This document shows, piece after piece, positions 1,345-48,011 of a stretch of DNA of 64,000 nt. The DNA is from Dehalococcoidia bacterium (GTDB lineage Bacteria > Chloroflexota > Dehalococcoidia > SZUA-161 > SpSt-899). The stretch spans positions 31,486 through 95,485 of the forward strand of contig JBLYPS010000003.1 of NCBI GenBank assembly GCA_048539495.1. Direction: 5' to 3'. The first letter of the stretch is position 1, and every line of letters begins with the position of its first letter. A program made the position numbers and the translations under genes. Below the pieces are notes generated by a model. That model was not told the DNA's origin. It did not search any database and worked only from the letters and a program-made list of their open reading frames with translations.

Positions 1345-3834
1345 ATGACCGAGAAATATAATCCTCCAGAAATCGAAAAGAAATGGCAATCAAGGTGGGA
1401 AAAGACCCGACTCTACGCCACAAGCGAAGATAGCGACCGCCCCAAGCTCTACGAGCTGACCATGTTCCCCTATACCTCTGGTGACCTCCACATCGGACAC
1501 TGGTACGCTATGGCCCCGGCAGATGTCCATGCCAGATTCATGCGGATGAAAGGCTATAACGTGCTGCACCCGATGGGCTTCGATGCCTTCGGCCTCCCCG
1601 CGGAGAATGCGGCCATCGATCGGGATATCCATCCGCATACCTGGACGATGAAAAACGTAGAGAACATGCGTCGCCAGTTTCACACTATGGGAGCGGTCTA
1701 CGATTGGGATCGGGAGGTGGTTACCTGCTCACCGGACTACTACCGCTGGACGCAGTGGCTGTTTCTCAAGTTACATGAAGCGGGTCTGACCTATCGGGCT
1801 AAAGCCCCGGCCAACTGGTGCTCCAGATGCCAGACGGTGCTTGCCAATGAGCAAGTCACCGCCGAAGGCCGATGTGAGCGCTGCGGCACGGCGGTGATCA
1901 GGAAGGACTTAGAGCAATGGTTCTTCCGCATCACCAGGTATGCCGATGAGCTTATGCAGCATGAGGGTCTCGATTGGCCGGAGCAGGTCAAGACGATGCA
2001 GCGCAACTGGGTCGGACGGAGTGAGGGGGCTGAGATTTCCTTCAGCATCGAGGAATACGGTCTCGATGAAAAAGAGATTCGGGTATTCACCACCCGACCC
2101 GACACCACCTACGGTGTTACCTTCATGGTCCTGGCCCCGGAGCATCCCCTGGTGGAAAAACTCACCTCGCCCGAATATAAGGACCGGGTCGATGACTATG
2201 TGAACCGGGCTCGCCGCCAGTCGGAGATCGAGAGGCTCTCCACGGAGCGGGAGAGAACCGGACTCTTCATTGGTGCTTACGCCACCAACAGGCTGAATGG
2301 AGAGAAGGTGCCCATCTGGATCGCCGACTATGCGCTCTTAAGCTATGGCACCGGGGCGGTCATGGGCGTGCCGGCTCATGACCAGCGAGATTTCGAGCTG
2401 GCTAAGGAGTTTGGCATTCCGATAAAAGTAGTCGTTGCGCCTGATAGATGGAGTGGTGAGGAACTGGAGGAGGCCTACGAAGAGCCGGGCACAATGGTCA
2501 ATTCCGGCCCCTTTGATGGTCAGCCCAGCGAAGAGGGCAAGGATGCGATTGTCGCTTTCATGGAGGAAAACGGCTATGGCAAGAAGGCTGTAAGTTACCG
2601 GCTGCGCGACTGGCTCATCTCTCGTCAGCGTTACTGGGGTGCGCCGATCCCGATGGTTCATTGTCCCCGGTGCGGCATCGTGCCGGTGCCGGAGAAGGAT
2701 CTGCCGGTGCTCCTCCCCGAGGATGCCGAGTTTAAACCCACCGGAGAATCACCGCTCAAGTATTGCGAGCCCTTCGTCAATACCACCTGCCCCCGTTGCG
2801 GCAAGCCGGCACAGCGCGAGACCGATACCATGGATACCTTCGTGTGTTCTAGTTGGTACTTCCTGCGCTACTGCAGCCCGCAGCATGATGATGGGCCCTT
2901 CGATCCCCAGAGGCTGAAATACTGGCTCCCCGTAGATCTATACACCGGAGGCGTGGAGCATGCCACCATGCATCTGCTCTATGCCCGCTTCTTCATCAAG
3001 GCGCTGCGCGATATGGGGATAGTTGACTTCGGAGAATCCTTCATCAAACTTTTCAATCAAGGGAAGATTATCCGAGGGAGACAGAAGATGAGTAAGTCCC
3101 GCGGCAACGTCGTCAACCCCGATGAATACGTGGCCGAATCGGGGGCCGATGCCATGCGCGCTTATCTGATGTTCATCGGACCCTGGGAGCAGGGGGGAGA
3201 GTGGAACGATAATGGTCTGATCGGCATCACGCGATGGCTCAATAGAATCTGGAATCTGGTACTGGCTGAAACCGAAATCGTGTCCGTGGGCCGTGGCCCG
3301 TGTCCGGACACGGGGGAGGGACACGGGGGACGGACACGGGGGACGGACAAGGAGCTACGGCGCGTGACCCATCAAACCATCAAGAAGGTAAATCAAGACC
3401 TGGAGAGATTCCACTTCAACACCATGCTGGCGGCGCTGATGGAGTTTACCAATTACCTCGCCAGGCTTAAGGAAATATGTGCGGTCAAAGATAGCCCGGC
3501 CTGGAAGGAAGCCATTGATGCCTTGCTTCTGTTGCTGGCGCCGGCTGTCCCTCACCTGGCGGAGGAGCTCTGGGAGCGGACCGGCCACCCCTACAGCATA
3601 CACCATCAGCCATTTCCTGTCTGGCAGGAGGAACTGGTAGCCGAAGAGGAGTTCACCCTGGTGATCCAGATAAACGGGAAAGTTCGCGATAAGGTGTCTG
3701 TCCCGGTTTCTATCTCCGAGGCTGAGGTCAGGGAATTAGTCCTGAGCCGGGAGCGAATTAAGGCTCAAGTAAGGCACCCGATTGTCAGGGTGATATATGT
3801 GACGGGACGTTTGGTGAACATTGTGGTGAAGTAA
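1345..3834 (+). CDS. leuS: Leucyl-tRNA synthetase
   Basis: HIGH-type 'TSGDLHIGH' and 'KMSKS' motifs and a class I LeuS architecture. The start is set at the ATG encoding MTEKYNPPEIEKKWQ. A TATAAT box sits at 1330-1335. Confidence 0.95.
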   Translation: MTEKYNPPEIEKKWQSRWEKTRLYATSEDSDRPKLYELTMFPYTSGDLHIGHWYAMAPADVHARFMRMKGYNVLHPMGFDAFGLPAENAAIDRDIHPHTWTMKNVENMRRQFHTMGAVYDWDREVVTCSPDYYRWTQWLFLKLHEAGLTYRAKAPANWCSRCQTVLANEQVTAEGRCERCGTAVIRKDLEQWFFRITRYADELMQHEGLDWPEQVKTMQRNWVGRSEGAEISFSIEEYGLDEKEIRVFTTRPDTTYGVTFMVLAPEHPLVEKLTSPEYKDRVDDYVNRARRQSEIERLSTERERTGLFIGAYATNRLNGEKVPIWIADYALLSYGTGAVMGVPAHDQRDFELAKEFGIPIKVVVAPDRWSGEELEEAYEEPGTMVNSGPFDGQPSEEGKDAIVAFMEENGYGKKAVSYRLRDWLISRQRYWGAPIPMVHCPRCGIVPVPEKDLPVLLPEDAEFKPTGESPLKYCEPFVNTTCPRCGKPAQRETDTMDTFVCSSWYFLRYCSPQHDDGPFDPQRLKYWLPVDLYTGGVEHATMHLLYARFFIKALRDMGIVDFGESFIKLFNQGKIIRGRQKMSKSRGNVVNPDEYVAESGADAMRAYLMFIGPWEQGGEWNDNGLIGITRWLNRIWNLVLAETEIVSVGRGPCPDTGEGHGGRTRGTDKELRRVTHQTIKKVNQDLERFHFNTMLAALMEFTNYLARLKEICAVKDSPAWKEAIDALLLLLAPAVPHLAEELWERTGHPYSIHHQPFPVWQEELVAEEEFTLVIQINGKVRDKVSVPVSISEAEVRELVLSRERIKAQVRHPIVRVIYVTGRLVNIVVK
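3279..3352. repeat. In-frame intragenic tandem-unit palindromic insertion in leuS
   Basis: The sequence 'gtgtccgtgggccgtggcccgtgtccggacacgggggagggacacgggggacggacacgggggacggacaagg' encodes VSVGRGPCPDTGEGHGGRTRGTDKE. It lies between conserved LeuS segments and has the G-rich-core-plus-repeated-unit architecture. Confidence 0.6.
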
Positions 3835-4484: not shown

Positions 4485-5729
4485 TTAAAACCTCCGGAAA
4501 ACCAGACAGGCGTTCTGCCCCCCAAACCCAAAGCTATTGGAAAGTACTACCCTAACATCCCTCTTGCTAGCCACATTAGGCACGTAATCGAGGTCGCATT
4601 CCGGGTCAGGGGTTTCGTAGTTGATGGTTGGATGGACAATTCCCTCGTTGAGCGTCTTCACACAGGCAATGGCCTCCACTCCCCCGGCAGCCCCCAGGAG
4701 ATGCCCGATCATAGACTTGGTGGAACTGATGGATACTTTATAGGCATGGTCCCCAAAGAGTCTCTTTATTGCCCGAGTCTCGGAGACATCATTTAGAGGA
4801 GTTGATGTTCCGTGAGCATTGATGTAATCAATATCGCTGGGGGCCAGCCCGGCATCTTCAATCGCCGATCGCATGGCTCTCATGGCCCCATCGGAGTCGA
4901 TAGCCACCGCATGATAGGCATCGGAGGAGATGCCGAAACCTGCTAGCTCAGCCAGAATCGGAGCGCCGCGACTGGTGGCGTGTTCAAGGCTTTCTAAGAC
5001 AAGAACCCCTGCCCCCTCGGCAGGAACGAACCCATCCCGGTTGGCATCGAAGGGACAGCTGGCTTTAGTGGGTTCTTCGTTGCGGCTGGTCAGCGCCTTC
5101 ATCACGGCAAAACCGGCGATACCGATCGCCGTTATTCCCGCCTCGGTGCCTCCGGCGACCATCACCTCAGCGCTGCCCCGTCGAATTACCTCCGCGGCCT
5201 CGCCGATGGCCTGAGTAGCGGCAGCACACGCCGTTGACACCGTAGAGGTGTATCCCTTAAGTCCGAATGCAATGCTTACGTGACCGGCAGCCAGGTTGGT
5301 CAGAATTATAGGCATGAAGAAGGGGTTGAGCCGCATCCCGCCTCTGGTAGTCAATGTCCGGCAGCCATCTTCGATCTCAGGTAGCCCTCCGATACCGTTG
5401 CCCAGGTACACGCCCAGCCGTTCCGGGTCCTCCTTTAGCAGATTGAGCTCGGCATCCTCTACAGCCATCCCCACAGCGGCTATTGCAAACTGACTGAACC
5501 GACCCATGTGTCGTGCCTCTTTACGCTCCATGAAATTCACCGGGTCGAAGCCTTTCACCTCGCCAGCGACCTTGCAGGAGAGGTTAGAAGGGTCGAAATG
5601 GGTGATTCGCCCGATACCAGACCTTCCCTCTACCAGGCCCTGCCAGTATTGGTCAACGTTGAGTCCCAGAGGCGTTATTGCCCCGAGTCCGGTGACGACA
5701 ACGCGATTGCGATTCCTTGCATCCTTCAT
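4485..5729 (-). CDS. fabF: 3-oxoacyl-ACP synthase II
   Basis: The 414-aa product has a KAS II N-terminus 'RVVVTGLGAITPLG' and the C-terminal 'GHLLGAAG...NSFGFGGQNA' motifs. Confidence 0.9.
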   Translation of the reverse strand: MKDARNRNRVVVTGLGAITPLGLNVDQYWQGLVEGRSGIGRITHFDPSNLSCKVAGEVKGFDPVNFMERKEARHMGRFSQFAIAAVGMAVEDAELNLLKEDPERLGVYLGNGIGGLPEIEDGCRTLTTRGGMRLNPFFMPIILTNLAAGHVSIAFGLKGYTSTVSTACAAATQAIGEAAEVIRRGSAEVMVAGGTEAGITAIGIAGFAVMKALTSRNEEPTKASCPFDANRDGFVPAEGAGVLVLESLEHATSRGAPILAELAGFGISSDAYHAVAIDSDGAMRAMRSAIEDAGLAPSDIDYINAHGTSTPLNDVSETRAIKRLFGDHAYKVSISSTKSMIGHLLGAAGGVEAIACVKTLNEGIVHPTINYETPDPECDLDYVPNVASKRDVRVVLSNSFGFGGQNACLVFRRF

Positions 5730-5743
5730 TGAATCCCCCTTTT

Positions 5744-5822
5744 TAGGCTGAAGCCTGTTAGGCTATTAGTAGGCTATTAGGCTCCTTCAGCCTTCAGCCT
5801 AATAACCTTCAGCCTAATACTG
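5744..5822. repeat. Family B palindromic repeat (GGCTGAAGG...TTAGGCTATTAGGC...CCTTCAGCC)
   Basis: The sequence is 'aggctgaagcctgttaggctattagtaggctattaggctccttcagccttcagcctaataaccttcagcc'. It overlaps the folC stop codon. Confidence 0.5.
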
Positions 5823-7182
5823 TTGGCTGTATGCTAAACTTGGGATAGCGCTCACCGGATATACCTCGGGCCTTTTCGATGACTTCGGCAACGACGAAGA
5901 GCGATCCGGTGGCGCAGATAAGGTCTCGCTTCCCGGCCTGCGCCAGCGCCGCGGAGACCGCCTGGGCGACGTTTTCCACTGCTTGAGCTTCCACTCCCTG
6001 TCGCTCAAATTCCTGGGCCAGTGCCTTTGCGGCAACGGCGCGAGGGTGCTGGGCGGCGGTAGTTATTACCTTATCGAAGAACGGCGCCAACTCGGCTATT
6101 ATCGCCGAGCAATCCTTGTCGCCAGAAATCCCGATGATCAGAATCGCCCGATCAAAGCGGAAGTATCGCTGGAGCGCCTCTCTGAGCCTCCTGGCCGAGT
6201 CGTCATTATGGGCGCCGTCGGCGATCAGGAGAGGTTCACGCTGTAGAATTTCGATTCTCCCCGGCCAGCGAACATTGGCCAGCCCGGAGATAATGTGGTG
6301 TTTCTCGATATCAAGAGTTTCCAATGCAGCGACGGCGGTGGCCGCATTCTCGAGCTGGTGCTCACCAAGTAATGGGATGGTGAGGTCGTACTGACTTTTT
6401 CGCCCTCTTATATTCACTGTTTGGGACTCTAAACTGAAGTCTTTTCCCTGCCAGGTTATCTCCTCTCCCACCATGATGAGTTTGGCCTCTTTCTTGAGGC
6501 AAATCTCGCGGATTACATCTGCTGCTTCGTCAACCTGGGGAGAGCTGATCACCGTGACACCGGGCTTTATGATTCCGGCCTCTTCGGCTGCTATCTGCGG
6601 GATGGTATCGCCGAGAACAGCGGTGTGGTCCCGGCTTATCGAGGTGACAACACACACCTCTGTGCGTGCCACGTTGGTAGCATCGAGTCGCCCTCCAAGG
6701 CCCGCCTCCACCACCAGAAAGGCCGCCTCTTGCTTCTGGAAATAGTGGAAGGCCATGGCGGTAAGAATCTCAAAGGTGCTCAGTTCCTCTGACTGGCCTC
6801 TATTTGTTGCCTCGATCTCAGGCTTTATCTCAGAGAGAAGCTCGGCAAACTCGTGCTCCGCGATGAGCTGCCCATCGATTCTTATCCGCTCGCGCATAGT
6901 GTGCAGATGTGGGGAGGTGTAGAATCCGGTGCGGAACCCCGCAACGCTGAGAGTTGAAGCGATCATCGCCGCCGTGCTGCCCTTTCCCTTTGACCCGGCG
7001 ATATGGACCGTCCTTGTTCTTAGATGGGGGGAACCCAATCGCCGAAGCAGATCCTCCATGCGCCGCAGGTCGAACCGGGCAGCATACCCAAATCCAGGCC
7101 AGCGCTCATAATCGGTAAAGCTCAAGATATAATCGAGGGCTGCTTGATAATTCATTGGACTCTTAAACCACCATAAACTCAA
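5809..7182 (-). CDS. folC: Folylpolyglutamate synthase / dihydrofolate synthase
   Basis: Mur-ligase P-loop 'GSKGKGSTAAMIASTL' and a FolC-like domain order. The start could be M1 or M10. Confidence 0.85.
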   Translation of the reverse strand: MSLWWFKSPMNYQAALDYILSFTDYERWPGFGYAARFDLRRMEDLLRRLGSPHLRTRTVHIAGSKGKGSTAAMIASTLSVAGFRTGFYTSPHLHTMRERIRIDGQLIAEHEFAELLSEIKPEIEATNRGQSEELSTFEILTAMAFHYFQKQEAAFLVVEAGLGGRLDATNVARTEVCVVTSISRDHTAVLGDTIPQIAAEEAGIIKPGVTVISSPQVDEAADVIREICLKKEAKLIMVGEEITWQGKDFSLESQTVNIRGRKSQYDLTIPLLGEHQLENAATAVAALETLDIEKHHIISGLANVRWPGRIEILQREPLLIADGAHNDDSARRLREALQRYFRFDRAILIIGISGDKDCSAIIAELAPFFDKVITTAAQHPRAVAAKALAQEFERQGVEAQAVENVAQAVSAALAQAGKRDLICATGSLFVVAEVIEKARGISGERYPKFSIQPTVLG

Positions 7183-15992: not shown

Positions 15993-18560
15993 CTATATAG
16001 TAGAGATTAATTCTTTAACGCTTTTGAATCTGTACTTTTCAAACTCTTCCTGGTCAACTCTTATGAATGACCACTTATTCCCTGACAAGCCCGTAGCATC
16101 CTTGCACCATTTCTTCATCCTGTTGTCTTTATGCTCAACATCAACATCTTCTCTTCCTTTTGTTTCAATAATTATCTGTTCGCTGTTATCAGTTACTGCT
16201 ACAAAATCAGGGTAGTACAATCTAAGGTTACCCTTCGAGTCTCTATATTCTACAAAGAATCCTATTTTCGGAACGATTTTGCTGAAAGCCGTTACATCAT
16301 CAGCTCTATCCAAAAATTTGGCAAAATCTGCCTCAAAATCATTATCGCAAGGGACGTAGTTAAAGGGGCATCTGTTGGCTGGATAAACCAATTTTGACCA
16401 TACAAACGGTCTTGTATCCGAGACTTTTATGGTGTCCCTCTTTTCGGGTTCTCTTTCGATGAAGGTCATCTCTTTGAACGCATTCACAAATAACTTCATC
16501 AACTGTTCCTGAACATCTGGGGAACTCAATTTGTAAAGTACTTTTGGGTCTTCAAGGTCAATTTGCTGAGTAAACAATTTTTCCACAACATATTTTTTCA
16601 CCAGCGGATAAAAACTCGTAAAAGCACCACCTATCTTCAACCGCTTAAGTATCTGATCGGTATAATAGGCAATTACGCTTTTAGAATCCTGAGGCACAGG
16701 TAAATCCCATTTTCTTTTTATAACTTCCATACCTCTGAGCATATCCACAGCAACATATTCCATTTCTAAGACCTTATTCTCCAGAGGGATGTTCATAGGA
16801 GGCAAGTTATTAACATCCACCTCACTTAAATGAAATTCTCTTATGAAAATTCTTGGACTCAAGATAGGTATTTCAATGTCCCTATCCAATTTATTTTCAT
16901 CTACGAATATGGTGGTTAAATTAAGCGACTTTCCGGTGTCAAACTCAGCAAACTTTATCCCCTCCTGTTTTTCTAATTTTTCAAGAATATCTGTTAACCC
17001 TGGGGGGCCAATCACCTCAAGAACATTTACTGATTTGTCTATTGATGTATCTTCTCCTGGAAACATTTTCCTTAAACCCCGCCCAATGACCTGTTCCGGG
17101 AGCACCTCTCTTTTTGATCCATAGGACCTTAATCCCACAATGACGTTAACATTTCTCACGTCCCAACCCTCGTTTAGCATCATCGTACTGACTATTGCCT
17201 CTACACCATGAGGGAATAACTTTTCCAGCTCTTGATCCAGTGATATCTTCTCAGGGTCATCAATAAGCTTCGCCACCTTTCTCGCCTTGGGCAAGTCTGC
17301 TTTTTTAACCTCTCCGGTGCTATCTGTGTGTATCAGCAATACCTTACCCTTAAGGTCAGGAACAGCAGAAATATATTCAAATACCTCGTCTGCCTCCTCG
17401 TTCTCAGGGCATTGAAAGAACAGCACCGGCTTTTTTGATAATGGTTGTAGTGCCTTTTTGTATTCCCGCCATCTCCTTATCCCGGCATCAATCCATGCCC
17501 TATATCTCTCGACTACATTAGTTGATGCAATCTCTTCAGCATTCTTGACCATCCCCTTCAATGGTAACTTTACGATATTCATTTCAATTGCTTCCTTGAG
17601 CGAGAAGTCCACGATAATCCAGGGGAACAAAGCCCCGGCCTCGGTTTTAGGCGTAGCCGAGAAGTCCAGCTCCATATTTATGCCTTTACCGTGTTCAGAC
17701 ACCAGATTCTTGTTAAGATCAAGAAGTATCTTCTTCCATGCCTTTTCAAAACTGTAGATATGATGTGCTTCATCTTTCAAAATCATTATATTGGGACAGG
17801 AAGTTAAGACCTCCTTTATTCTGTTCTCCTGATAAATATCAGAAACATTATAAACCTCGGGCAATTCCATAACTTTATCTACATATTGTTCTACTTCTTC
17901 CTTTTTGCTCTGTCTTTGTTCCAACTGCTGGATATTGGTCACAAACAGCACACCCTCAGGAATAACATGAATCGGGTCTTCCTTAAGAATTACTTTGAGG
18001 TTAAATTCTTCCTGCCACTCTGGTGGAATAAGTGGCAATTCTCTGAATATTTTCCCATCCTCAAAATCTCTTGTAAGCCTGTCATAAATGATGTTTTTGT
18101 CACCCGCAATAACCAGAAATTTGGGGGTATAACCATCACTGTTTTCTTTTTTGTGATTGAAGTACTGCCATATAATGCTTATTGCCATGACGAAGGTTTT
18201 GCCGGAGCCTGTTGCCATTTTAAAGGCGTAAAGCGGATATTGATCATAAGAAGGGTCATACGCCTGTATAGCTCCTGCTCCGAAATCCCTTGCCATGTCT
18301 ATAAAGTTGCGTTTTTTCATCACTTCATAAACGTAAACCAATGTTTCAATCGCTTCCCTCTGGCAGAACCAGAACTCAAAAGGCTCACCATCTACAATAT
18401 GGTCTTCACTAAACCAGAATTGCAGCAGGCGGCGGGTGGTGTCGGTTGTCTTGGGATAGCCCTGTTCTCGCCAGGCGAAAACTGCCTTGCGAAGCTCATT
18501 GACTAAATAGGCTTCGCTTGTGCGTCTTTGTTGTGGATACAAAAGTTCGGCCGGTTTCAT
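15993..18560 (-). CDS. res: Type III restriction endonuclease Res subunit (SF2 helicase plus C-terminal PD-(D/E)xK nuclease)
   Basis: Motif I 'MATGSGKTFVMA', a DEAH box 'LKDEAHHIY', and a C-terminal 'YYPDFVAV...IIIETKG' nuclease motif. The gene lies in a low-GC region. Confidence 0.85.
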   Translation of the reverse strand: MKPAELLYPQQRRTSEAYLVNELRKAVFAWREQGYPKTTDTTRRLLQFWFSEDHIVDGEPFEFWFCQREAIETLVYVYEVMKKRNFIDMARDFGAGAIQAYDPSYDQYPLYAFKMATGSGKTFVMAISIIWQYFNHKKENSDGYTPKFLVIAGDKNIIYDRLTRDFEDGKIFRELPLIPPEWQEEFNLKVILKEDPIHVIPEGVLFVTNIQQLEQRQSKKEEVEQYVDKVMELPEVYNVSDIYQENRIKEVLTSCPNIMILKDEAHHIYSFEKAWKKILLDLNKNLVSEHGKGINMELDFSATPKTEAGALFPWIIVDFSLKEAIEMNIVKLPLKGMVKNAEEIASTNVVERYRAWIDAGIRRWREYKKALQPLSKKPVLFFQCPENEEADEVFEYISAVPDLKGKVLLIHTDSTGEVKKADLPKARKVAKLIDDPEKISLDQELEKLFPHGVEAIVSTMMLNEGWDVRNVNVIVGLRSYGSKREVLPEQVIGRGLRKMFPGEDTSIDKSVNVLEVIGPPGLTDILEKLEKQEGIKFAEFDTGKSLNLTTIFVDENKLDRDIEIPILSPRIFIREFHLSEVDVNNLPPMNIPLENKVLEMEYVAVDMLRGMEVIKRKWDLPVPQDSKSVIAYYTDQILKRLKIGGAFTSFYPLVKKYVVEKLFTQQIDLEDPKVLYKLSSPDVQEQLMKLFVNAFKEMTFIEREPEKRDTIKVSDTRPFVWSKLVYPANRCPFNYVPCDNDFEADFAKFLDRADDVTAFSKIVPKIGFFVEYRDSKGNLRLYYPDFVAVTDNSEQIIIETKGREDVDVEHKDNRMKKWCKDATGLSGNKWSFIRVDQEEFEKYRFKSVKELISTI

Positions 18561-18562
18561 AG

Positions 18563-18943
18563 CTATACCGCCGCTATTTGTTGTAGTTTTTCTAAAGTCC
18601 TTTTGGATAAATCAAGTGCAGTTTTTGCTCTCTGGGCATCAATACTCGCCTCACCTTCGTAATCAGCATCTTTTCTTTCCTTCCATAAGCGACGCAGGTT
18701 CTTGGCTATCTTCTTCTCCACATTACGTGATAATCCTTGGTATCTCTCCCTTACAAACTTGTGAGTGTCAACCCTTGGAATGGGTATGTTTTTAGCAATA
18801 AGATGATTCCTTGCAATACAAAATATGCCGTAATAAGAGCGACTCATTGCCGAACGCAGATAGGCTTCTCGCAAATCTACTTTTTCTTGGCAGGATATAA
18901 GTTCGTCAGCCAATTGGATATACAACTCCCAATTAAAACTCAT
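18563..18943 (-). CDS. Hypothetical protein in the restriction-modification operon
   Basis: The 126-aa ORF shows the usual operon coupling, with 3 nt between its stop and the res start. It is low GC. 'SRSYYGIFCIARNHL' is vaguely HEPN-like. Confidence 0.4.
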   Translation of the reverse strand: MSFNWELYIQLADELISCQEKVDLREAYLRSAMSRSYYGIFCIARNHLIAKNIPIPRVDTHKFVRERYQGLSRNVEKKIAKNLRRLWKERKDADYEGEASIDAQRAKTALDLSKRTLEKLQQIAAV

Positions 18944-19353
18944 CTTGGTCTCACCATTATTTCAAGTATATTACTAATATCGTCATCTACATAAAGCCAC
19001 CACTCCTCATCCAATCTATCTAAAAGATTCAGGGAGTCTTCAGGTGATAAGTTAGTTTTTATGATAATAAAAAGTCCTTCGAAATCTTCCTCGTGGTCGT
19101 GGTGAAGTTCTAACTCAAGAACAATATCATTACCAAACACACGTCTAATTTGCCAAAAGGCCTCTAACAAGACAGCCAATAATTCATGCTCTATAATGAA
19201 ACTTATAATTTCTGCTTCAGGATTGATAAAACTATATAATTGAAAGAGAGAGCTGACATTATCGGGCATAAAAAGTTCATTTTCTGTCAATGCTTCCGGG
19301 AAAGTCAAGGTTGTCATTTCTTTTCCTCTCCCTACCGCATTCTCACTACTCAT
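18940..19353 (-). CDS. Hypothetical acidic protein in the restriction-modification operon
   Basis: The 137-aa ORF has 4-nt overlaps with both neighbours and is low GC. Confidence 0.4.
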   Translation of the reverse strand: MSSENAVGRGKEMTTLTFPEALTENELFMPDNVSSLFQLYSFINPEAEIISFIIEHELLAVLLEAFWQIRRVFGNDIVLELELHHDHEEDFEGLFIIIKTNLSPEDSLNLLDRLDEEWWLYVDDDISNILEIMVRPR

Positions 19354-19356
19354 ACC

Positions 19357-20160
19357 TCACACCTCTATTTTTATTATCTTATTCGTATCGTTCCCAAATA
19401 CATCCACTACTTTAACCATTAGCTGATATTCCCCTGCCTCATCGTATGTGTGCATGGCTTCATAATCTACTTTCGGATTCTTTTTCACCCTGAAACTCTG
19501 CCACTGATTGTGGAAGGTGTCGCCTTTATAATCCCAATCAACCGCCCAGTAATCTATGAGTTCCCTTGAATCCTTTACCCTGCTGGCAATCTCTGCAAGC
19601 TCTGCGGTTGGTGCAAGTTGAAAGTCGGTGATTTTTAACGTTACTTCATTATCTTTAACTTTAGTTTCAATCTCCAGATAGGCAACCTCCGGGAATTTTA
19701 CATATTTCGAGAGTTCCTTTGCAACAACGTCATCCCTTATTTTCAGTAGTTGCAGGTCTAAACCTACTAAAGAGGATTTGATTTCATTCACGGATGGTAT
19801 CTGGATGAGTTTCAAATCAACGCTGTTCTTCTTTGCCAGGTCTTTCGCCAGTTCATTGACGTCATAACTCCACTCCCAGCCCAATATATCTGCTTTGTTG
19901 AAGTTATTTGCCCGGCACTCAATTACTACTTTTTCAACTTCGCCCATCGTCACAGGGGCATTCAACGGGCCAACATGAACCGCCCTGTTCCCCATCCTGC
20001 CATGCAGATATCTGAAGTCTCTTAATGGTTGCGCTTGATAGAGTTTAAGCATAAAGGCAAGGTATTCATCCTCTCTTTCCTGCCAGTAAACCGTTTCATA
20101 ATTGCCGATATTCCAGAGCTCAAAGGGTCTTGCGGGTTTATCATACTTTCTAGCGCTCAT
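19357..20160 (-). CDS. Hypothetical protein with an Ig-like C-terminus in the restriction-modification operon
   Basis: The 267-aa ORF has a 4-nt overlap with the upstream small ORF. Its C-terminus 'YQLMVKVVDVFGNDTNKIIKIEV' looks beta-sandwich-like. Confidence 0.45.
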   Translation of the reverse strand: MSARKYDKPARPFELWNIGNYETVYWQEREDEYLAFMLKLYQAQPLRDFRYLHGRMGNRAVHVGPLNAPVTMGEVEKVVIECRANNFNKADILGWEWSYDVNELAKDLAKKNSVDLKLIQIPSVNEIKSSLVGLDLQLLKIRDDVVAKELSKYVKFPEVAYLEIETKVKDNEVTLKITDFQLAPTAELAEIASRVKDSRELIDYWAVDWDYKGDTFHNQWQSFRVKKNPKVDYEAMHTYDEAGEYQLMVKVVDVFGNDTNKIIKIEV

Positions 20161-20372
20161 GGTTCATTTTTCCTACTATGTTCTTTATGTGATTGGCTCA
20201 AAAAATCTTCCATACCTATCCCAAATTTATTTTCAAAGCCCTTCTTTGCAATATCTTCATATTCACTGAAATTGGCAATAAACAAATCTAATAGGCTGGA
20301 AACACAATATTTACAACCACCGTCACACTCAAAAATTATCTCAATTACTTTTTGAGCTTCATCTTTTCTCAT
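20157..20372 (-). CDS. Small Cys-containing hypothetical protein
   Basis: The 71-aa ORF has the motif 'CDGGCKYC' and is translationally coupled to mod and the next ORF. Confidence 0.3.
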   Translation of the reverse strand: MRKDEAQKVIEIIFECDGGCKYCVSSLLDLFIANFSEYEDIAKKGFENKFGIGMEDFLSQSHKEHSRKNEP

Positions 20373-21483
20373 TTTCCGTCAAATCCTTTGAATTATGAAT
20401 GTCTAAAAGCCTTTTTCTGGTAACCTGAATGGCAAACTTGGATAAATCAGAGCCTATCCATTTTCTGCCTAATTTCTCTGCTGTTGCTAAGGTTGTGCCT
20501 GAGCCACAGAAGAAATCTGCAACGATGTCGCCGGGGTCCGTTGTAGCCATTAATAAAACTTGCAAAAGTCCCTCGGATTTTTGGGTCAGAAAGTTTAGAC
20601 ACTCAGCAGAAACATTTATGACAGGTTTTACATTAACTGTTAGTAGTTTGCTGTTATTCAAAACTAATGTGATTTTGTCCTGTAGCACATCTCGCAAAAG
20701 CACATCCGCATAATATCTTCCACTTGCATCCCTAAGAGAAGTAAAAAACGGTTTTTCGTAATAAACTCTTTCTTTTAGTTTATTAAATTTAGGGTTTGCA
20801 TTTTTAGAATAGAATAAAATAATATCATGCTTCTTAGGAAAATCGGCTTCTTTACTCGGGGCGCCCCCTGTTCTATAACACCATGATATCTCATTTCTAA
20901 AACCTAGCTTATTTTCTCCACCCGGTCCGAAAACTTCGTCCATCATCACCTTAACATAATGTCCCGCATGCCAGTCAAGGTGCACATAGATAGAACCATT
21001 TTCAGCCAATAATTCCCTCATCAAAACCAACCGCTCATACATATATTCGAGATAAGAAGCAATCCCACCGCTCCAGGTATCCTTATAAGCCCGCTCTTCT
21101 ATGATAGATGGCTCCTTTTCTATTGCTTCGTCTCCAATTTTTGTTCTTATCGTAAAATCTGAACCTGTGAAAAACGGCGGGTCAATGTAAATCAGATTTA
21201 TCTTCCCAACCCAGCCCTGTTTAATCAGAGAACTCATCACTAATTTGTTATCGCCCCAGATAAGAAGATTCTTCCAGTCCTTTGAATAATTGGCGGGATA
21301 CTCGTCTTCGGGGAAAAATGAAATCGTATATCCACCCTTAATTCTGGGCTTGTTTACTGTTTCAACAACCTGAAATGGGAGATTGGGTTTTTCTATCGGT
21401 TTCTTCTCCCCTTTTTCGTATCGGTCGTATTTTTCTGCCCAGAGCAGCTCTACGTACTTCTTGTTATCAGGCATCTTTATCAC
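20359..21483 (-). CDS. mod: Beta-class N6-adenine/N4-cytosine DNA methyltransferase (Type III Mod-like, compact)
   Basis: Motif IV 'IYIDPPFFTG' comes before motif I 'DFFCGSGTTLATAEKLGRKWIGSDL', which is the beta-class order. At 374 aa it is short for a Type III Mod. Confidence 0.8.
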   Translation of the reverse strand: MIKMPDNKKYVELLWAEKYDRYEKGEKKPIEKPNLPFQVVETVNKPRIKGGYTISFFPEDEYPANYSKDWKNLLIWGDNKLVMSSLIKQGWVGKINLIYIDPPFFTGSDFTIRTKIGDEAIEKEPSIIEERAYKDTWSGGIASYLEYMYERLVLMRELLAENGSIYVHLDWHAGHYVKVMMDEVFGPGGENKLGFRNEISWCYRTGGAPSKEADFPKKHDIILFYSKNANPKFNKLKERVYYEKPFFTSLRDASGRYYADVLLRDVLQDKITLVLNNSKLLTVNVKPVINVSAECLNFLTQKSEGLLQVLLMATTDPGDIVADFFCGSGTTLATAEKLGRKWIGSDLSKFAIQVTRKRLLDIHNSKDLTENEKR

Positions 21484-21611
21484 CCCTTAGCCTACCTGCA
21501 AAGATTATTGCACAATTCCTCCTGTTATTGCGAGCAAAGTGAAGCAAGATCATCAGGGGGATTCTCGCCCTGAAACCCCCTAAAGCGGTTGACGGTTCTG
21601 TTCGTTTGTGC

Positions 21612-21640
21612 TTGACATAGGGTTTCCCCTTCCTTATAAT
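21612..21640 (+). promoter_or_regulatory. Consensus sigma70 promoter (TTGACA-17-TATAAT)
   Basis: 'ttgaca' at 21612-21617 and 'tataat' at 21635-21640 are separated by a 17-nt spacer. The promoter sits upstream of the HNH gene start at 21667. Confidence 0.5.
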
Positions 21641-21666
21641 TACAGTAAATAGGTTGGGGGTGAAAG

Positions 21667-21906
21667 ATGGGACAATTTCCTGAGTCAGTTAAGGATGATG
21701 CTTTCAAACGAAGTCGTGGCCGATGCGAATGTTGGCGTAAAACTCATAAGTGGCATAAAGGTAGATGTAAAACTATTATTAAGCGTAATAAGAATATGCA
21801 TTACCATCATATTCGTTCCAAAGGCCCTGATACTCTTGCAAATTGTGAGGTCCTTTGTATTGAGTGTCATGAGAAAACTCGCTCCTATGGTCGCTCAGAA
21901 TTCTAA
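21667..21906 (+). CDS. HNH endonuclease-domain small protein
   Basis: The 'CECW...HKGRC...HYHHIRSKGPDTLANCEVLCIECH' pattern matches an HNH/zinc-finger nuclease motif. Confidence 0.6.
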   Translation: MGQFPESVKDDAFKRSRGRCECWRKTHKWHKGRCKTIIKRNKNMHYHHIRSKGPDTLANCEVLCIECHEKTRSYGRSEF

Positions 21907-21974
21907 AAACTAAACCCGTTTGACTGCTTTATGCCCTGGAGTCATAAAGGGGCTTCGCTTCCGTCAATCCTGGC

Positions 21975-23492
21975 TTAGCCGGGGACTGTCCTTAACTGTG
22001 GAAACAGGATCACCTCCCGAATGGACTGGTGTCCAGTGAGGAGCATCACCAGCCGGTCGACCCCCATCCCCAACCCGCCCGTCGGGGGCATGCCGTGTTC
22101 TAAGGCCAGAAGGAAGTCCTCATCGATCCTCTCTGCCTCTTCATCGCCGAAGAGAGCTCTCACTCTTTCCTGTTCCTCGAAGCGCTCTCGCTGTTCCAGA
22201 GGGTCGTTGAGCTCACTGAAGGCATTGGCGATTTCCATTCCTCCGGCGAAGGCTTCGAATCGCTCCACCAGGTGGTCGCATCCCGGCTTTCTCTTGGCCA
22301 GGGGCGATAGCTTCACCGGGTAATCCATGAGGAATGTCGGCTGGATCAGGTTGGGCTCGACCGTATGGGAAAGTAAGTAATCAACGAGCTTGCCCCAACT
22401 CATTCCTTCCTCGACGCGGAGGCCGGTTTTCCTTATCTCTGCCTCGAGCGAGCGTGCGTCGGGGAAAGCCTCGAAATCGACCCCGCTTCCTTCTTTGATC
22501 GCCTCGCGCAGGGTGAGGCGCTGCCAGGGTGGAGAGAGGTCCACTGTCAGCTCGCCAAAGCTGATTCTCATCGTCCCCAAAACCTCCTTGGCGATGAAGG
22601 AGACCATTTGCTCGACCATCTCCATCACATCGTGGTAATCGGCATAGGCCTGGTAGCTCTCCAGAGTAGTGAATTCGGGATTATGTTTGGTAGAGATGCC
22701 TTCGTTGCGGAATATCCGCCCGATCTCGTAGACCCTGTCGAAGCCCCCGATAATGAGCCGTTTCAGATGAAGTTCGGTGGCGATGCGCAGATAGAGGTCG
22801 CTATCGAGGGCATGATGATGGGTAGCAAAAGGCCTGGCTAAAGCCCCGGCGGCAAGCGACTGCAACACCGGCGTTTCCACTTCGATGAATCCGCGCTTCT
22901 CAAGGAAACGTCGCATGGCCGAAATCGCCTGACTGCGCACCTCAAATGTGCGCCTTACCTGCTCGTTAGAGAGGAGATCGAGATATCGTTGGCGGTAGCG
23001 CTTCTCGACATCGGCAAGCCCATGCCACTTCTCGGGCAGAGGCTGCAGTGACTTCGACAGCATCGTGAAGTCGGATACCTTAACGGTGATCTCCCCGGCC
23101 CGAGTCTCGAAGAGCTCTCCTTCAACACCGATGAAATCGCCGATGTCGAAGTCTTGAAGCAGGCTATACTTCTCTTCGCCTATGGCATCCCGCTGGAGAT
23201 AGGCCTGAACCTTGCCCGATCCATCCCTGATATCCAGAAAGATAGCCTTGCCCATGGAGCGCATGGCTGTAATACGACCGGCGAGCTTCAGAGTCTGGAG
23301 ACGCTTCGCTCTGGAGACGATTTGCTCTGGAATCCCACTCCCCTCGACTCTCGACTCTCGATAGAGAGTGATGGCTTCCTGCGTAGTATGGCTACATAAG
23401 TATCGGGCAGGGTATGGATTGACACCGCGACTGCGGATTCTCTGGAGCTTGTCCAAGCGGCTTTGGATTAACTCTGCTTTTCTTTGTGCCAT
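21975..23492 (-). CDS. lysS: Lysyl-tRNA synthetase (class II)
   Basis: An OB-fold N-domain 'GRITAMRSMGKAIFLDIRDGSGKVQ' and a class II core are present. The gene lies downstream of greA, as in many bacteria. Confidence 0.9.
   Translation of the reverse strand: MAQRKAELIQSRLDKLQRIRSRGVNPYPARYLCSHTTQEAITLYRESRVEGSGIPEQIVSRAKRLQTLKLAGRITAMRSMGKAIFLDIRDGSGKVQAYLQRDAIGEEKYSLLQDFDIGDFIGVEGELFETRAGEITVKVSDFTMLSKSLQPLPEKWHGLADVEKRYRQRYLDLLSNEQVRRTFEVRSQAISAMRRFLEKRGFIEVETPVLQSLAAGALARPFATHHHALDSDLYLRIATELHLKRLIIGGFDRVYEIGRIFRNEGISTKHNPEFTTLESYQAYADYHDVMEMVEQMVSFIAKEVLGTMRISFGELTVDLSPPWQRLTLREAIKEGSGVDFEAFPDARSLEAEIRKTGLRVEEGMSWGKLVDYLLSHTVEPNLIQPTFLMDYPVKLSPLAKRKPGCDHLVERFEAFAGGMEIANAFSELNDPLEQRERFEEQERVRALFGDEEAERIDEDFLLALEHGMPPTGGLGMGVDRLVMLLTGHQSIREVILFPQLRTVPG
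23288..23372. repeat. Tandem-unit repeat inside the lysS N-terminal region
   Basis: The sequence 'ctggagacgcttcgctctggagacgatttgctctggaatcccactcccctcgactctcgactctcgatagagagtg' contains repeated ctctggagacg and actctcg units around a 'cccactcccctcg' core. Confidence 0.4.
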
Positions 23493-24197: not shown

Positions 24198-27101
24198 TTA
24201 CTCCATTTCGCCCCAATTCTGGCCCAGTTTGGTCTCCACCTTAAGAGACACGCTAAGCTCCATTGCCGCTGACATGATCTCCTGTACTAGTCGTTTCATC
24301 AACTCGATCTCTGCCTGCGGCACCTCAAAAAGAAGCTCGTCATGCACCTGAAGGATCATCTTGCTCTTGAGACTCCTAATATCTATCTCGTTCTGGATGT
24401 TGATCATCGCCAGCTTTATGATGTCGGCAGCGGTGCCCTGGACCGGCATGTTTATGGCCATCCGCTCCGCCGCTTGCCGCACTTGATAATTGGAGGAATT
24501 AATCTCCGGGATATACCGCCTTCTTCCCATCACCGTTTGAACGTATCCTTTTTCAACCGCGTGCTGCTTGGTCAAGTTAACATAATCCCTGACGCCGCGG
24601 TATCTTTCGAAGTAGGCGTTAATAAAATCGGTCGCTTTCTGGCGGGAGAGCCCGGTGGCCTGTTCCAGGCCATAATCGCCCATACCGTAGATCACACCGA
24701 AATTCACCACCTTGGCTATTCGTCTCATCTCTGAGGTCACCTCGTATGTCTCCACGCCGAAGACCTGCGAGGCGGTGGCGGCATGGATATCCTCGTCGTG
24801 GGCGAAAGCGGCCAGGAGCCCGGGATCCTGCGATAGATGCGCCATAACGCGGAGCTCGATCTGGGAGTAATCCGCACTCAACAGCCAAGAGTCGAGAGTC
24901 GAGAGTCGAGAGTCGAGAGTCCCCCTCGCCCCCCGACTCCAGACTCCAGACTCCCGACTCCAGACTCCCTTTGGGGCGACGAAAGCCTGTCTGATCCGAT
25001 TTCCTATCTCAGTACGCACGGGGATATTCTGCAGATTGGGATCGCTCGATGATAAACGCCCGGTAGCGGTGACGGTCTGATTGAAATTGGTATGCACCCT
25101 TCCGGTCTCCGGATCGATGAGGGCTGGGAGGGCATCAACATAGGTTGATTTGAGCTTGGCGAGCTGGCGATACTCGATGATGTGCTCAATAGCGGGGTGC
25201 TCGCCCCGTAGCCCCTCCAGGACTGAGATATCCGTGGAGTAACCGCTCTTGGTCTTGCGCCCCGGGGTCAGCTTAAGCTCATCGAAAAGAATCCTCCCCA
25301 GTTGTTGGGTGGAGTTTATATTGAACTTATACCCCACCGACTCGTAAATCTCACCCTCGATCCTGGCCATCTCCATAAACATGACCTGCGACATATCCCG
25401 AAGCAAGCTAGTATCCAGAGCTATCCCATTCCTCTCCATCCGATATAAGACCGGAACCAGCGGCATCTCAACCTCGACGAAAAGATCCCACAACCCCTCT
25501 CTCTTCAGTTCTGCCTCCAGAAGTTGGCTTAGTCTACCCGTCATATCGGCATCGGCGCAGGCGTAATCGGCGGCTAGTGCAATGCTGACATCGGCCATAG
25601 AACCCTGTTTCGGTCCCGACCCGATGAGGGCGCTTATGGGGGTCATCTCAATGCCCAGTTTGCCGAAAGTGAGCTGCTTCAACCCTAGAGACTTCTCCCC
25701 CAGAAGATGCGCCGCGATCATGGTATCGAAGTTGATATGCTGCAATTCCAACCCGTGTTGCCAGAGAACGGTCATATCATACTTGGCATTGTGGGCTATC
25801 TTCGAAATAGCGGGGTCTATCATGATAGGCTTGAGTCTGGTAGTGATCTCGGATAGAGAGAGTTGACTAGTTGATAGTTGATAGTTGATAGTCGCTGGTC
25901 CCTCCCCACCCCAGACTGCCGACTGCTGACTGCTGACTGCCGACTGCCTGTGCCCGACGGGGATATACCAGGCCTTCGCCGGAGTCATCGAAAGAGAGAT
26001 GCCTACCAATGTCGTGTGTCTTGCCTCTTTGCCGGAGGTCTCCGTATCCACCACTAATGCCCCGGCTGTGGAGAGTTCCTCCACCAGTTCATTAAGGGCT
26101 TCGGAGGTAGCCACTATTTCATAAAAAGTCGAGAGTTCAGAAGGACGGGTATCTTGCCCGTCATCTCCAGTCAAGGGGAGGGGGACTCCAGACTCCAGAC
26201 TCCAAACTCCAGACTCGGATGTTGTCCCCGGCAGTTTGTCCAGGAGACTGAAGAACTCCAGCTCTCGAAACAGCGCGGTAACCGTGTCCCGCTTATAGCT
26301 GCTCACGCGGCAGGATGAGAGGTCGAGGCTTACCGGGACATCGGTGACGATGGTGGCTAACTTTTTGCTCTGTCGTGCCACTTCTTCATTGGACCGTAGG
26401 ATCTTTTGAATCCTGAGCGGGCTCACCTCGTCGATTCGTCGGTAGATTCCTTCCAGGCTGTCAAATTGCTGGATAAGCTTGACGGCGATCTTCTCTCCGA
26501 TACCGGCTACTCCAGGGATATTATCCGTCTGATCGCCTTTGAGGCCCTTCAGGTCGGCAAGCTGCTGTGGTCGGAGGCTGTATCGCTGCTGTACCGCTGC
26601 TTCATCGTAAAGTTGAGTGTCACTGAACGGGCGCCGGGGCCGGGGAAGAAGCACCTCGACACCGGGGGAGACAAGCTGCAGGGTATCGGTATCGCCGGTT
26701 ACGATGATAGAATAGATCCCCTGTGCGCTGGCCTGCTGGCTGAGAGCACCAAGAATATCGTCGGCCTCGTAGCCTTCCACCTCAAAGGCGAGGACGCCGA
26801 GGGCCTGGACCAGTTGGCGAACGACGGCGAATTGTGAGATGAGCTCGTCAGGCGCTTTGGGACGGTGCGCCTTATAATCCTGAAACTGAATATGCCTGAA
26901 GGTGGGAGCGGCGGTGTCGAAGGCGATTGCCCAGTGTGAGGGCTTAAACTCTTCGAGTGTCTTCAGGAGCATGCTTGCGAAGCCATAAACAGCCCCCGTT
27001 GGTTTTCCCTCCTTGGTCGAAAGTGCCGGCAGGGCATGGAAGGCGCGATGGATAAGGGCATGTCCGTCGAATAGGAGAAGCAGCGGTCTTTCTGTTGACA
27101 T
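24198..27101 (-). CDS. polA: DNA polymerase I
   Basis: A 5'-nuclease N-terminus, a 3'-5' exonuclease region and polymerase motifs ('DYSQIELR', 'QVHDEL') are present. At 967 aa it is enlarged by three in-frame repeat insertions. Confidence 0.9.
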   Translation of the reverse strand: MSTERPLLLLFDGHALIHRAFHALPALSTKEGKPTGAVYGFASMLLKTLEEFKPSHWAIAFDTAAPTFRHIQFQDYKAHRPKAPDELISQFAVVRQLVQALGVLAFEVEGYEADDILGALSQQASAQGIYSIIVTGDTDTLQLVSPGVEVLLPRPRRPFSDTQLYDEAAVQQRYSLRPQQLADLKGLKGDQTDNIPGVAGIGEKIAVKLIQQFDSLEGIYRRIDEVSPLRIQKILRSNEEVARQSKKLATIVTDVPVSLDLSSCRVSSYKRDTVTALFRELEFFSLLDKLPGTTSESGVWSLESGVPLPLTGDDGQDTRPSELSTFYEIVATSEALNELVEELSTAGALVVDTETSGKEARHTTLVGISLSMTPAKAWYIPVGHRQSAVSSQQSAVWGGEGPATINYQLSTSQLSLSEITTRLKPIMIDPAISKIAHNAKYDMTVLWQHGLELQHINFDTMIAAHLLGEKSLGLKQLTFGKLGIEMTPISALIGSGPKQGSMADVSIALAADYACADADMTGRLSQLLEAELKREGLWDLFVEVEMPLVPVLYRMERNGIALDTSLLRDMSQVMFMEMARIEGEIYESVGYKFNINSTQQLGRILFDELKLTPGRKTKSGYSTDISVLEGLRGEHPAIEHIIEYRQLAKLKSTYVDALPALIDPETGRVHTNFNQTVTATGRLSSSDPNLQNIPVRTEIGNRIRQAFVAPKGVWSRESGVWSRGARGTLDSRLSTLDSWLLSADYSQIELRVMAHLSQDPGLLAAFAHDEDIHAATASQVFGVETYEVTSEMRRIAKVVNFGVIYGMGDYGLEQATGLSRQKATDFINAYFERYRGVRDYVNLTKQHAVEKGYVQTVMGRRRYIPEINSSNYQVRQAAERMAINMPVQGTAADIIKLAMINIQNEIDIRSLKSKMILQVHDELLFEVPQAEIELMKRLVQEIMSAAMELSVSLKVETKLGQNWGEME
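24889..24970. repeat. In-frame heptamer-array palindromic insertion in polA (immediately before motif A)
   Basis: '(gagtcga)n' and 'ccccctcgcccccc' and '(gactcca)n' encode SRESGVWSRESGVWSRGARG just upstream of LLSADYSQIELR. Confidence 0.65.
25856..25950. repeat. In-frame tandem-heptamer insertion in the polA 3'-5' exonuclease region
   Basis: '(agttgat)n' and 'gctggtccctccccacccca' and '(gactgcc/gactgct)n' encode SAVSSQQSAVWGGEGPATINYQLSTSQLSL. Confidence 0.6.
26165..26217. repeat. In-frame repeat in the polA inter-domain linker
   Basis: 'ggggagggggactccagactccagactccaaactccagactc' encodes SGVWSLESGVPLPLTG. Confidence 0.55.
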
Positions 27102-28549: not shown

Positions 28550-28750
28550 TAACCCGGACGAGCCGGAACCAACAAGGCATATTGTCGTTTAAATTCGAAA
28601 TTCGAAGCACGAAATACTAAACAAATCCCAAAGTTCAAATGTTCAAAACTGCCCCATATTTGGAATTTTCCTATTTGGATTTGTTTAGTGCTTAGAAATT
28701 AGGATTTAGGATTTTTCCATTTTGCGCAAGACTTTAGACTTAAGGGACTA
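28550..28750 (+). repeat. ~200-bp direct repeat, copy 1 (island boundary or noncoding element)
   Basis: It is about 93% identical to 44690-44889 in the same orientation. It contains the internal inverted repeat 'cgaagcacgaaatactaaacaaatcc' / 'ggatttgtttagtgcttag'. Confidence 0.7.
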
Positions 28751-44689: not shown

Positions 44690-44889
44690 CAACCCAGACA
44701 AGCCGGAACCAACAAGGCATATTGTCGTTTAAATTCGAAATCCGAAGCACGAAATACTAAACAAATCCCAAATCCCAATGTTCAAATGTTCAAAACTGCC
44801 TCATATTTGGAATTTTGCTATTTGGATTTGTTTAGTGCTTAGAAATTAGGATTTAGGATTTTCCATTTTACGCAAGACTTTAGATTTAA
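44690..44889 (+). repeat. ~200-bp direct repeat, copy 2
   Basis: It matches 28550-28750. It lies between the mutL 3' end and the Lon-like gene's 5' end, and it may carry that gene's promoter. Confidence 0.7.
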
Positions 44890-47462: not shown

Positions 47463-47933
47463 ATGCCAAGACGAGGTAAAGTAGTCAAGAGAATAGCACC
47501 GCCGGATGTGAGATATCACAGCGAGAAGATAACCCGGCTTGTCAATCGGATCATGATCGATGGCAAGAAGAGCAAGGCCGAGCGGATTGTCTACACGGCA
47601 CTGGACATAATAAAGGAGCGAGTCGAGAGGGATCCTCTGGAGGTCTTCGAGGAGGCGATCAAGAATACCACACCGCTCCTGGCAGTTAAGCCGCGCCGCA
47701 TCGGGGGAGCCACCTATCAGGTTCCGGTTGAGGTACCTCCGGAGCGAGGTCTGTTTCTCGCGATGCGCTGGCTGGTGACCACCGCCAGGGCACATAAAGG
47801 CAAGCCAATGGCAGAGAGGCTGGCAGCGGAGATAATGGATGCCTCTCGCAGTGAGGGCATCACTGTTAAGAAGCGTATAGATACCCACAAGATGGCGGAG
47901 GCGAACCGGGCTTTTGCTCACTATCGATGGTAA
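47463..47933 (+). CDS. rpsG: 30S ribosomal protein S7
   Basis: '[10 protein letters not shown]...' matches S7. The start is at the internal ATG of the predicted ORF. Confidence 0.95.
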
Positions 47934-48011
47934 CGAGTATTGAGTATCGAGGAGGGGAGAGGGGGGAGGTGGGTGGCCTCAGAACTCAGAACTCGAAACA
48001 CTGAGGAAGGA

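Follow-up and report, generated by a model that had tools for sequence, protein, structure and literature searches.

The 64-kb stretch of DNA analysed here (contig JBLYPS010000003.1 of a Dehalococcoidia bacterium, called the window in the following) carries leuS, the gene of leucine–tRNA ligase (LeuRS). The leuS product was 100% identical to a database protein annotated as 'leucine--tRNA ligase [Dehalococcoidia bacterium]' (P0001), and matched the Thermus thermophilus LeuRS 1h3n with an E-value of 8e-269. Within this open reading frame (ORF) lies a recent, lineage-specific, in-frame and stop-free hairpin-repeat insertion, the parts of which are as follows:

1345 to 3834, + strand: leuS, leucine–tRNA ligase, 829 aa, intact (ORF and translation).
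3275 to 3345, + strand: segment non-homologous to relatives, 71 nt vs. 23 nt in the related locus L001, net +48 nt or 16 codons (blastn and MAFFT against L001, L010, L011, and L012; protein alignment).
3279 to 3305, + strand: left arm, about two inverted copies of a 13-nt unit (inverted-repeat search and direct reading).
3297 to 3314, + strand: perfect 18-nt palindrome, CCCGTGTCC followed by GGACACGGG, the hairpin centre without spacer (9 + 9 nt, 100% complementary, 0 nt between the arms).
3305 to 3349, + strand: right arm, tandem array of the 13-nt unit GGACACGGGGGAS, 3.5 copies (Tandem Repeats Finder and direct-repeat search).
3312 to 3342, + (sense) strand: G-quadruplex consensus match with G-runs of 5, 3, 5, and 5 and loops of ≤8 nt, a motif match only (regular-expression scan).

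The original prediction, made from the letters alone, had described a repeat insertion of about 25 residues beginning at 3279. The string it quoted is indeed present in leuS, at 3280–3352 (73 nt), its start having been set one base too early, and this segment is in frame and translated as VSVGRGPCPDTGEGHGGRTRGTDKE. The figure of about 25 residues proved right for the length of the non-homologous segment; compared with its nearest relatives, however, the gene gained 48 nt net (16 codons), since GGASPVDEE, a Gly-rich linker of 9 residues, was replaced. Consistently, comparison with L001 at the DNA level showed that the ancestral linker codons were replaced and not merely split. As the insertion is stop-free and its net length (+48 nt) a multiple of three, it can be read straight through as a Gly/Arg/Thr-rich loop of ~25 residues.

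The hairpin architecture of the segment was then resolved by repeat searches. Tandem Repeats Finder reported the right arm (3305–3349) as the unit CGGACACGGGGGA × 3.5, with 93% matches and a score of 83, while in the left arm the proximal copy agreed with the reverse-complemented unit at 11 of 13 positions and the distal copy was weak; the inverted arms were paired as 3279–3299 with 3318–3338. Three units (39 nt) run through all three frames (DTGE/GHGG/RTRGT), and none of the six frames of the 13-nt unit contains a stop triplet. The RNA of the segment was predicted to fold with −45.5 kcal/mol, compared with −33.7 ± 2.9 kcal/mol for dinucleotide-preserving shuffles (z = −4.0), and none of the 200 shuffles folded as well. 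Rfam and tRNA scans of the insertion locus gave no match. An antisense ORF of 128 aa (2938–3324, − strand) also crosses the insertion and is open only through the repeat, which is stop-free in all six frames, a case that illustrates how such elements can give spurious gene calls.

Nine further loci (L002–L009 and L029) encode the identical LeuRS, and the exact 74-nt string was recovered in every one of them. These loci include three metagenome assemblies from The Cedars, a serpentinizing alkaline spring system, sampled at two springs in two years (GPS1 2011, GPS1 2012, and BS5 2011); the remaining ones are other genome and read assemblies with the identical gene. Repeats and hairpins are easily mis-assembled, but the insertion is not an assembly artefact, because the exact string stands in all nine further loci; the same sequence from three samples and several assemblers, in frame and with intact flanks, makes an assembly or sequencing error extremely improbable. 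Apparent structural differences downstream of leuS between the assemblies were traced to N-filled scaffold gaps and discarded. Downstream of leuS, one scaffolded segment (L003 7400–7640, corresponding to window 5740–5830) carries a ~93% identical copy of the end of the ketoacyl-synthase gene (window 4485–5729), followed by a hairpin of entirely different repeat units; if this is the same spacer in another strain, the structure was kept there while the sequence was replaced.

In contrast to the carriers, the five closest LeuRS relatives (P0002–P0005 and P0008; 82–88% identity) lack the insertion and have the 9-residue linker GGASPVDEE, or a close variant of it, instead. Measured from the WLNRIW to the FNT motif, the linker of the window LeuRS has 54 residues and is the longest of the 106 that could be measured in Chloroflexota homologues, the other 105 having 37 to 52; its peptide is unique. 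These results bear out the predicted lineage-specific, in-frame insertion between conserved LeuRS segments. No intermediate leuS allele was found in a metagenome scan with a degenerate leuS flank pattern, which returned 17 loci, one of them leuS (of the same strain) and the rest chance matches; nor did the copy number of the array vary between strains, as it was identical in the nine further loci (strains >99.6% identical).

To place the insertion in the protein, the C-terminal 252 residues of LeuRS were modelled with AlphaFold2 (62 sequences, mean predicted local distance difference test score, pLDDT, of 86), whereas a full-length model (19 sequences, mean pLDDT 42.7) was set aside as too poor. 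The C-terminal model matched solved LeuRS–tRNA crystal structures with a probability of 1.0 and a TM-score of ~0.6. In the model, the segment appeared as coil (pLDDT 56–73) flanked by two helices with pLDDT >90, so that, by the structural check proposed with the original prediction, it falls in a loop. At the same position, T. thermophilus LeuRS carries a longer linker of its own. The insertion site is a permissive, length-variable loop that joins two confident helices of the anticodon-binding domain and is itself modelled at low confidence.

Hairpin arrays are widespread in the window. Tandem Repeats Finder reported 60 arrays in 64 kb, and period-7 arrays with at least 2.5 copies numbered 29, compared with 0–1 in Markov shuffles. 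Many of them are paired as two complementary arrays, thus forming a hairpin, and the unit sequence differs from locus to locus. Those within genes, other than leuS, are:

23292 to 23361, − strand: element in the N-terminal region of lysS, +36 nt, same class (orthologue comparison).
24886 to 24973, − strand: polA-1, (GGAGTCT)5, then GGGGGGCGAGGGGG, then (GACTCTC)5, +72 nt, same class (sense RNA −57.8 kcal/mol).
25861 to 25949, − strand: polA-2, in the 3′-5′ exonuclease domain, (GCAGTCR)5, then TGGGGTGGGGAGGGA, then (CTATCAA)n, +69 nt, same class (orthologue comparison).
26148 to 26216, − strand: polA-3, in the linker, (GGAGTCT)n, then CCCCTCCCC and a further part, +48 nt, same class (orthologue comparison).
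32015 to 32066, − strand: 3′ end of the truncated mnmE gene, (AGTCAAG)n, then GGGGTCCCCCTCCCC, same class by architecture.
58856 to 58925, + strand: C-terminal tail of rpsE, (AGAGTCN)5, then GGAGGGAGGGGAA, same class by architecture.

In detail, the polA-1 insertion (24–25 residues) lies between the residues matching G603 and W604 of Taq Pol I, six before the catalytic aspartate of motif A. The rpsE element places a G-rich core with short arrays in a ~26-residue C-terminal extension of S5. The mnmE gene (32009–33061, − strand) ends at 350 residues, just past the NKCD motif, and no downstream frame encodes the ~100 residues with which a normal MnmE ends; the (AGTCAAG)n-GGGGTCCCCCTCCCC element stands exactly at the truncation point, where a HAD hydrolase gene (31344–32012, + strand) abuts. 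A G-rich core flanked by short arrays was also seen at the very beginning of the EF-G ORF (fusA start, 47925–48000). Next to lysS, a low-GC island (16000–22000; 0.40 vs. ~0.55) forms an insertion between serS and lysS relative to the gene order of L032, and holds a type III-like restriction-modification pair (Res, 15993–18560; N6/N4 methylase, 20359–21483).

Eight genes (~4,600 residues) were further compared with the relatives L032 and L011 as unselected sites, counting internal insertions of at least 3 residues. All five internal insertions in the window lineage were repeat-array elements (three in polA and one each in lysS and leuS), and the relatives had none. A stop triplet occurred in the sense unit of none of the 12 intragenic arrays, compared with 15 of the 24 intergenic arrays (+ strand); such stop-free intragenic arrays are what a selection filter would produce. 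The net insertion lengths were all multiples of three, namely 48 nt in leuS, 72, 69, and 48 nt in polA, and 36 nt in lysS, and 69 nt for an extra polA element in locus L031 described below.

These regularities also bear on whether the leuS segment is translated at all. Were ribosomes to skip it, in the manner of the translational bypassing of phage T4 gene 60 and the mitochondrial 'byp' elements, or were it cut out of the RNA, the peptide VSVGRGPCPDTGEGHGGRTRGTD would not be made. The likeness here is a GC-rich hairpin within an essential gene, as the byp elements were reportedly described by Lang and colleagues in 2014. A bypassed or excised gap, however, would need neither a length in multiples of three, which all six comparable insertions have, nor the lack of stop triplets in the sense frames. 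Instead of an untranslatable gap, holding a stop or a frame shift between matching take-off and landing codons, the leuS segment is in frame and without a stop in any frame. With the reading frame kept and stops avoided in every case, bypass or excision is very unlikely.

The intergenic hairpins of the ribosomal-protein operon (50432–50510, 52088–52162, 62630–62713, 63132–63212, and 63632–63695) have in common a conserved apex, GGGG(G)YTACGnnGTRCCCC, and arms built of (GGGTAAT)n/(CCTATAA)n-type units, and their sense RNA folds far better than the antisense RNA, owing to G-U pairs, which suggests that they are RNA-level elements and a true dispersed family. The sense-strand folding bias of the intergenic hairpins fits a role as RNA structures.

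The question arises whether the leuS segment is likewise kept by selection, be it as an mRNA hairpin or G-quadruplex that tunes translation or stability, or as a useful new LeuRS loop. Its sense RNA was predicted to fold with −41.2 kcal/mol vs. −32.9 kcal/mol for the antisense, with three G-U pairs, and a better sense than antisense folding was also found for polA-1 and for five of six intergenic ribosomal-protein operon hairpins; moreover, the G-quadruplex motif is on the sense strand and the sequence is invariant in every assembly with this allele. However, the invariance says little among assemblies that are 99.6–99.97% identical overall, several other in-ORF elements have no significant fold, and sense-strand G-richness follows from Gly/Arg/Glu codons as well, so that the folding bias in leuS may simply reflect G-rich codons. 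All close relatives manage with the 9-residue linker, and because they do without the segment, it was treated as a tolerated passenger with no role of its own; a selected function appears improbable.

The original prediction had further assigned the leuS insertion to one element family with those in polA, lysS, rpsE, and mnmE, on the ground of a common core-plus-tandem-unit architecture. Those genes do carry hairpin arrays, and leuS has in common with the class the complementary tandem arrays that form a hairpin, the sense-strand G-runs, a site at a Gly-rich loop, and the recent in-frame, stop-free insertion. However, the leuS unit is 13 nt long vs. 7 nt in the class, with no sequence in common; its arms are of the GTGTCC/GGACAC type vs. 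GAGTC/GACTC in the heptamer arrays of the class; and its centre is a spacer-less perfect palindrome, with a G5 run inside each unit and no separate GGGGnGGGG core. No second copy of the leuS 13-mer was found in the 64-kb window. The prediction of one family is thus borne out for the architecture, or for the process that generates the arrays, but not for a single mobile sequence. The G-rich 'core' of the lysS element aligns with the ancestral DGSGGLPQ codons, and much of the polA-2 'core' aligns with ancestral Gly-coding sequence; because of this alignment with ancestral Gly codons, the core in lysS, and in part in polA-2, is local sequence and not imported DNA. The possibility that GAGTC marks a restriction or nickase site was rejected, as GAGTC was neither enriched nor depleted (observed/expected 1.03 overall) and none occurs in leuS.

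Turnover of the class was observed directly between close strains. L031, the polA gene of GCA_018725445, is ~90% identical to the window polA. Its polA-1 differs at one nucleotide, its polA-2 is short of exactly three left-arm heptamers (3 × 7 nt), and polA-3 is absent. At 1529–1601, 45 nt upstream of polA-2, L031 further carries an extra element whose arm units are those of polA-2 and whose core, CGGGGGGCGGGGGG, is non-ancestral. Relatives at ~80–85% identity lack all of these polA elements. The polA elements thus turn over quickly, by gain, loss, and change of unit number between close strains. Judging from these comparisons and from the cores, the class shows signs of both local genesis and copying between sites.

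The origin of the leuS element was then considered. The insertion was probably generated in place, by the repeat-forming process behind the short-unit hairpin arrays of this genome, and has since been carried as a tolerated passenger, a reading held with somewhat better than even confidence. Its course may have been as follows. The ancestral linker would already have contained a small G/C-rich palindrome (CCGGGG..CCCCGG in the related locus L010), an inverted copy of which would have arisen by fold-back or template switching; 13-nt units would then have been added by replication slippage, and only frame-preserving, stop-free outcomes in a permissive loop would have survived, the smallest such step being three units (39 nt). 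In L010 the ancestral linker is CCGGGGGTGCCTCCCCGG, with a 6-bp palindrome and a 6-nt loop, and its stretch CCTCCCCGGTG matches the reverse complement of the first leuS unit, CCTCCCCCGTG (local alignment p = 0.003 vs. shuffles, one of eight tests). The alignment of leuS with L011 contains a 13-residue (39-nt) gap, that is, three 13-nt units, and the head-to-tail 13-nt × 3.5 array with its 93% matches is of the kind found in slippage-type long simple-sequence repeats (LSSRs) and variable-number tandem repeats. In favour of a local origin are also the lack of another 13-mer copy in the window and of a target-site duplication or terminal repeats at the locus; in favour of a repeat-forming process acting throughout the genome are the excess of period-7 arrays, the units particular to each locus, the 3 × 7-nt strain difference in polA-2, and the single heptamer by which two copies of a 150-nt dispersed repeat differ.

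Several points weigh against an origin in place. Because no intermediate alleles were found, the stepwise history is only inferred, and copy-number variants of the leuS array were likewise not found. The likeness of the leuS unit to the ancestral linker is short and comes from one of eight tests; other elements look copied between sites, such as the polA-2-like extra element of L031 with its non-ancestral core, and the ribosomal-protein operon hairpins have their conserved apical sequence in common. The reading is, moreover, drawn from the 64-kb window of this genome.

A further point of this kind came from the database searches. Among 185,579 reference genomes, a collection without this species, a doubled 13-mer was found at one locus, in Nocardioides insulae DSM 17944, where an intergenic 13-nt × 3.2 array (L013 5307–5347) is identical over 41 nt to window 3306–3346, down to the order of its GAG/GAC/GAC variants; the ORFs on either side of it are isochorismatase-like and a major facilitator superfamily (MFS) transporter. 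A purely local origin does not predict such a 41-nt identical block. By a rough estimate under our own assumptions, about one chance array with the same consensus unit would be expected in such a database, while the probability of an exact match with an identical variant pattern would be of the order of 1–2%. The 13-mer had no match in viral contigs and plasmids. A search with a periodic peptide translated from the array gave 59 word-sharing candidates, none with E ≤ 10, at a low sensitivity that missed even the organism's own LeuRS.

The main rival reading is a mobile origin, in which a non-autonomous palindromic element, like a Rickettsia palindromic element (RPE), a repetitive extragenic palindromic (REP) doublet (REPIN), or a cyanobacterial small dispersed repeat (SDR), was copied into leuS by a trans-acting enzyme that works on DNA hairpins. 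Such an element would explain the clean presence or absence between close relatives, the GAGTC/GACTC arms and GGGGnGGGG cores common to other in-ORF elements across loci, the gain of a complete second element with a non-ancestral core 45 nt from polA-2 in L031, the conserved apex of the intergenic hairpins, and the 41-nt identical array in an unrelated actinobacterium. However, the leuS unit has no second copy in 64 kb and, the Nocardioides array aside, no match in the reference genomes, viral contigs, or plasmids; the units differ between loci, and the ancestral linker was replaced and not simply interrupted. A repeat search of the locus detected no target-site duplication and no terminal repeats: in place of the terminal inverted repeats and target-site duplication of a miniature inverted-repeat transposable element (MITE), the whole leuS element is a palindrome without flanking direct repeat, and it has no terminal inverted repeats distinct from the array. 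Nor was a transposase detected among the 20 window ORFs scanned with Pfam. Copying by a mobile element is accordingly possible but not the probable source of the leuS insertion. As a separate observation, an AT-rich dispersed repeat of ~150 nt is present in the window in two copies (28590–28740 and 44730–44885), ~95% identical and one 7-nt unit apart, and looks like a MITE.

Beyond an origin of the leuS copy in place, it may be asked what the class as a whole represents. The genome could host an undescribed kind of hairpin element, with short-unit arms and G-rich centres, whose dedicated or G-run-biased mechanism seeds essential genes in frame (LeuRS, LysRS, S5, and Pol I), the 41 nt in Nocardioides then reflecting a shared template or an inter-phylum transfer. 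We regard this as a rather doubtful proposal. Extrapolation from the five events in ~4,600 codons suggests several hundred elements per genome, and it is this genome-wide class, more than the single leuS copy, that is of interest. Should the class prove real, its host is a free-living uncultured bacterium in which gains, losses, and unit-number changes are visible between close strains, and the rise and spread of short hairpin repeats, the birth of new protein loops, and the tolerance of Pol I and aminoacyl-tRNA synthetases to insertions all become testable. In practice, the repeat segments inflate protein lengths and, being stop-free in six frames, create long spurious antisense ORFs, and both effects can mislead the annotation and alignment of metagenome-assembled genomes.

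A literature search for in-ORF hairpin arrays in Chloroflexota found no report. The insertions were compared with known repeat systems of other bacteria. Long simple-sequence repeats, especially heptanucleotide arrays attributed to polymerase slippage, were described by Mrazek and co-workers (as cited in PMC4679880), and the known arrays are mainly intergenic and unpaired. Similar to LSSRs, the window arrays consist of short head-to-tail units, heptamers dominate, the copy number varies between strains, and stop-containing units are kept out of ORFs; unlike them, the window arrays form complementary hairpin arms inside essential genes, and their unit length is not a multiple of three (13 nt in leuS). 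The short tandemly repeated repetitive (STRR) arrays of cyanobacteria are likewise head-to-tail arrays of short units.

The GGGNATC repeats of Xanthomonas and Nostoc, G-rich heptamers with G-quadruplex potential, follow closely after ORFs on the sense strand; they are intergenic for the most part, and no pairing into hairpins is described for them (PMC4692102). In the window, the (GGGTAAT)n and (GGGATAA)n arrays of the ribosomal-protein operon are similar to them. SDRs are said by Elhai and colleagues (in 2008) to be very small, possibly mobile, and located within otherwise conserved sequence. The group SDR4–6 is known from Nostoc punctiforme (as cited in PMC5861425 and PMC3116915). Such SDRs are conserved sequences of 21–27 nt in Nostocaceae, while the elements studied here have no conserved sequence in common.

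REP sequences and REPINs are high-copy palindromes of conserved sequence that lie outside genes and are associated with a RAYT transposase gene (PMC3116915). They resemble the window elements as short hairpin-forming repeats dispersed over a genome, but the leuS element sits inside a gene and its sequence is unique, and the Pfam scan of window ORFs showed no RAYT gene.

The nearest analogue is the RPEs (Ogata et al., 2000, 2002; as cited in PMC10969869). In both cases, palindromic DNA has entered unrelated housekeeping genes in frame, is translated as an extra peptide where the fold allows it, and differs in its presence between close relatives. For leuS, the corresponding features are the continuous 829-aa ORF with its net gain of 48 nt, the palindromic hairpin DNA, and a site that the fold seems to tolerate, a coil between confident helices in a linker that ranges from 37 to 54 residues. 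According to the same source (PMC10969869), RPEs measure ~100–150 bp and occur in many copies, in families each with a conserved consensus and peptide. In contrast, the leuS element is 71 nt long, is built of a 13-nt tandem unit, replaced ancestral codons, and has no sibling in the window, where many copies with a family consensus and peptide were not observed. Provided that the class is real, repeat DNA would have made its way into essential proteins, in frame and on a large scale, a second time and independently of the RPEs of Rickettsia.

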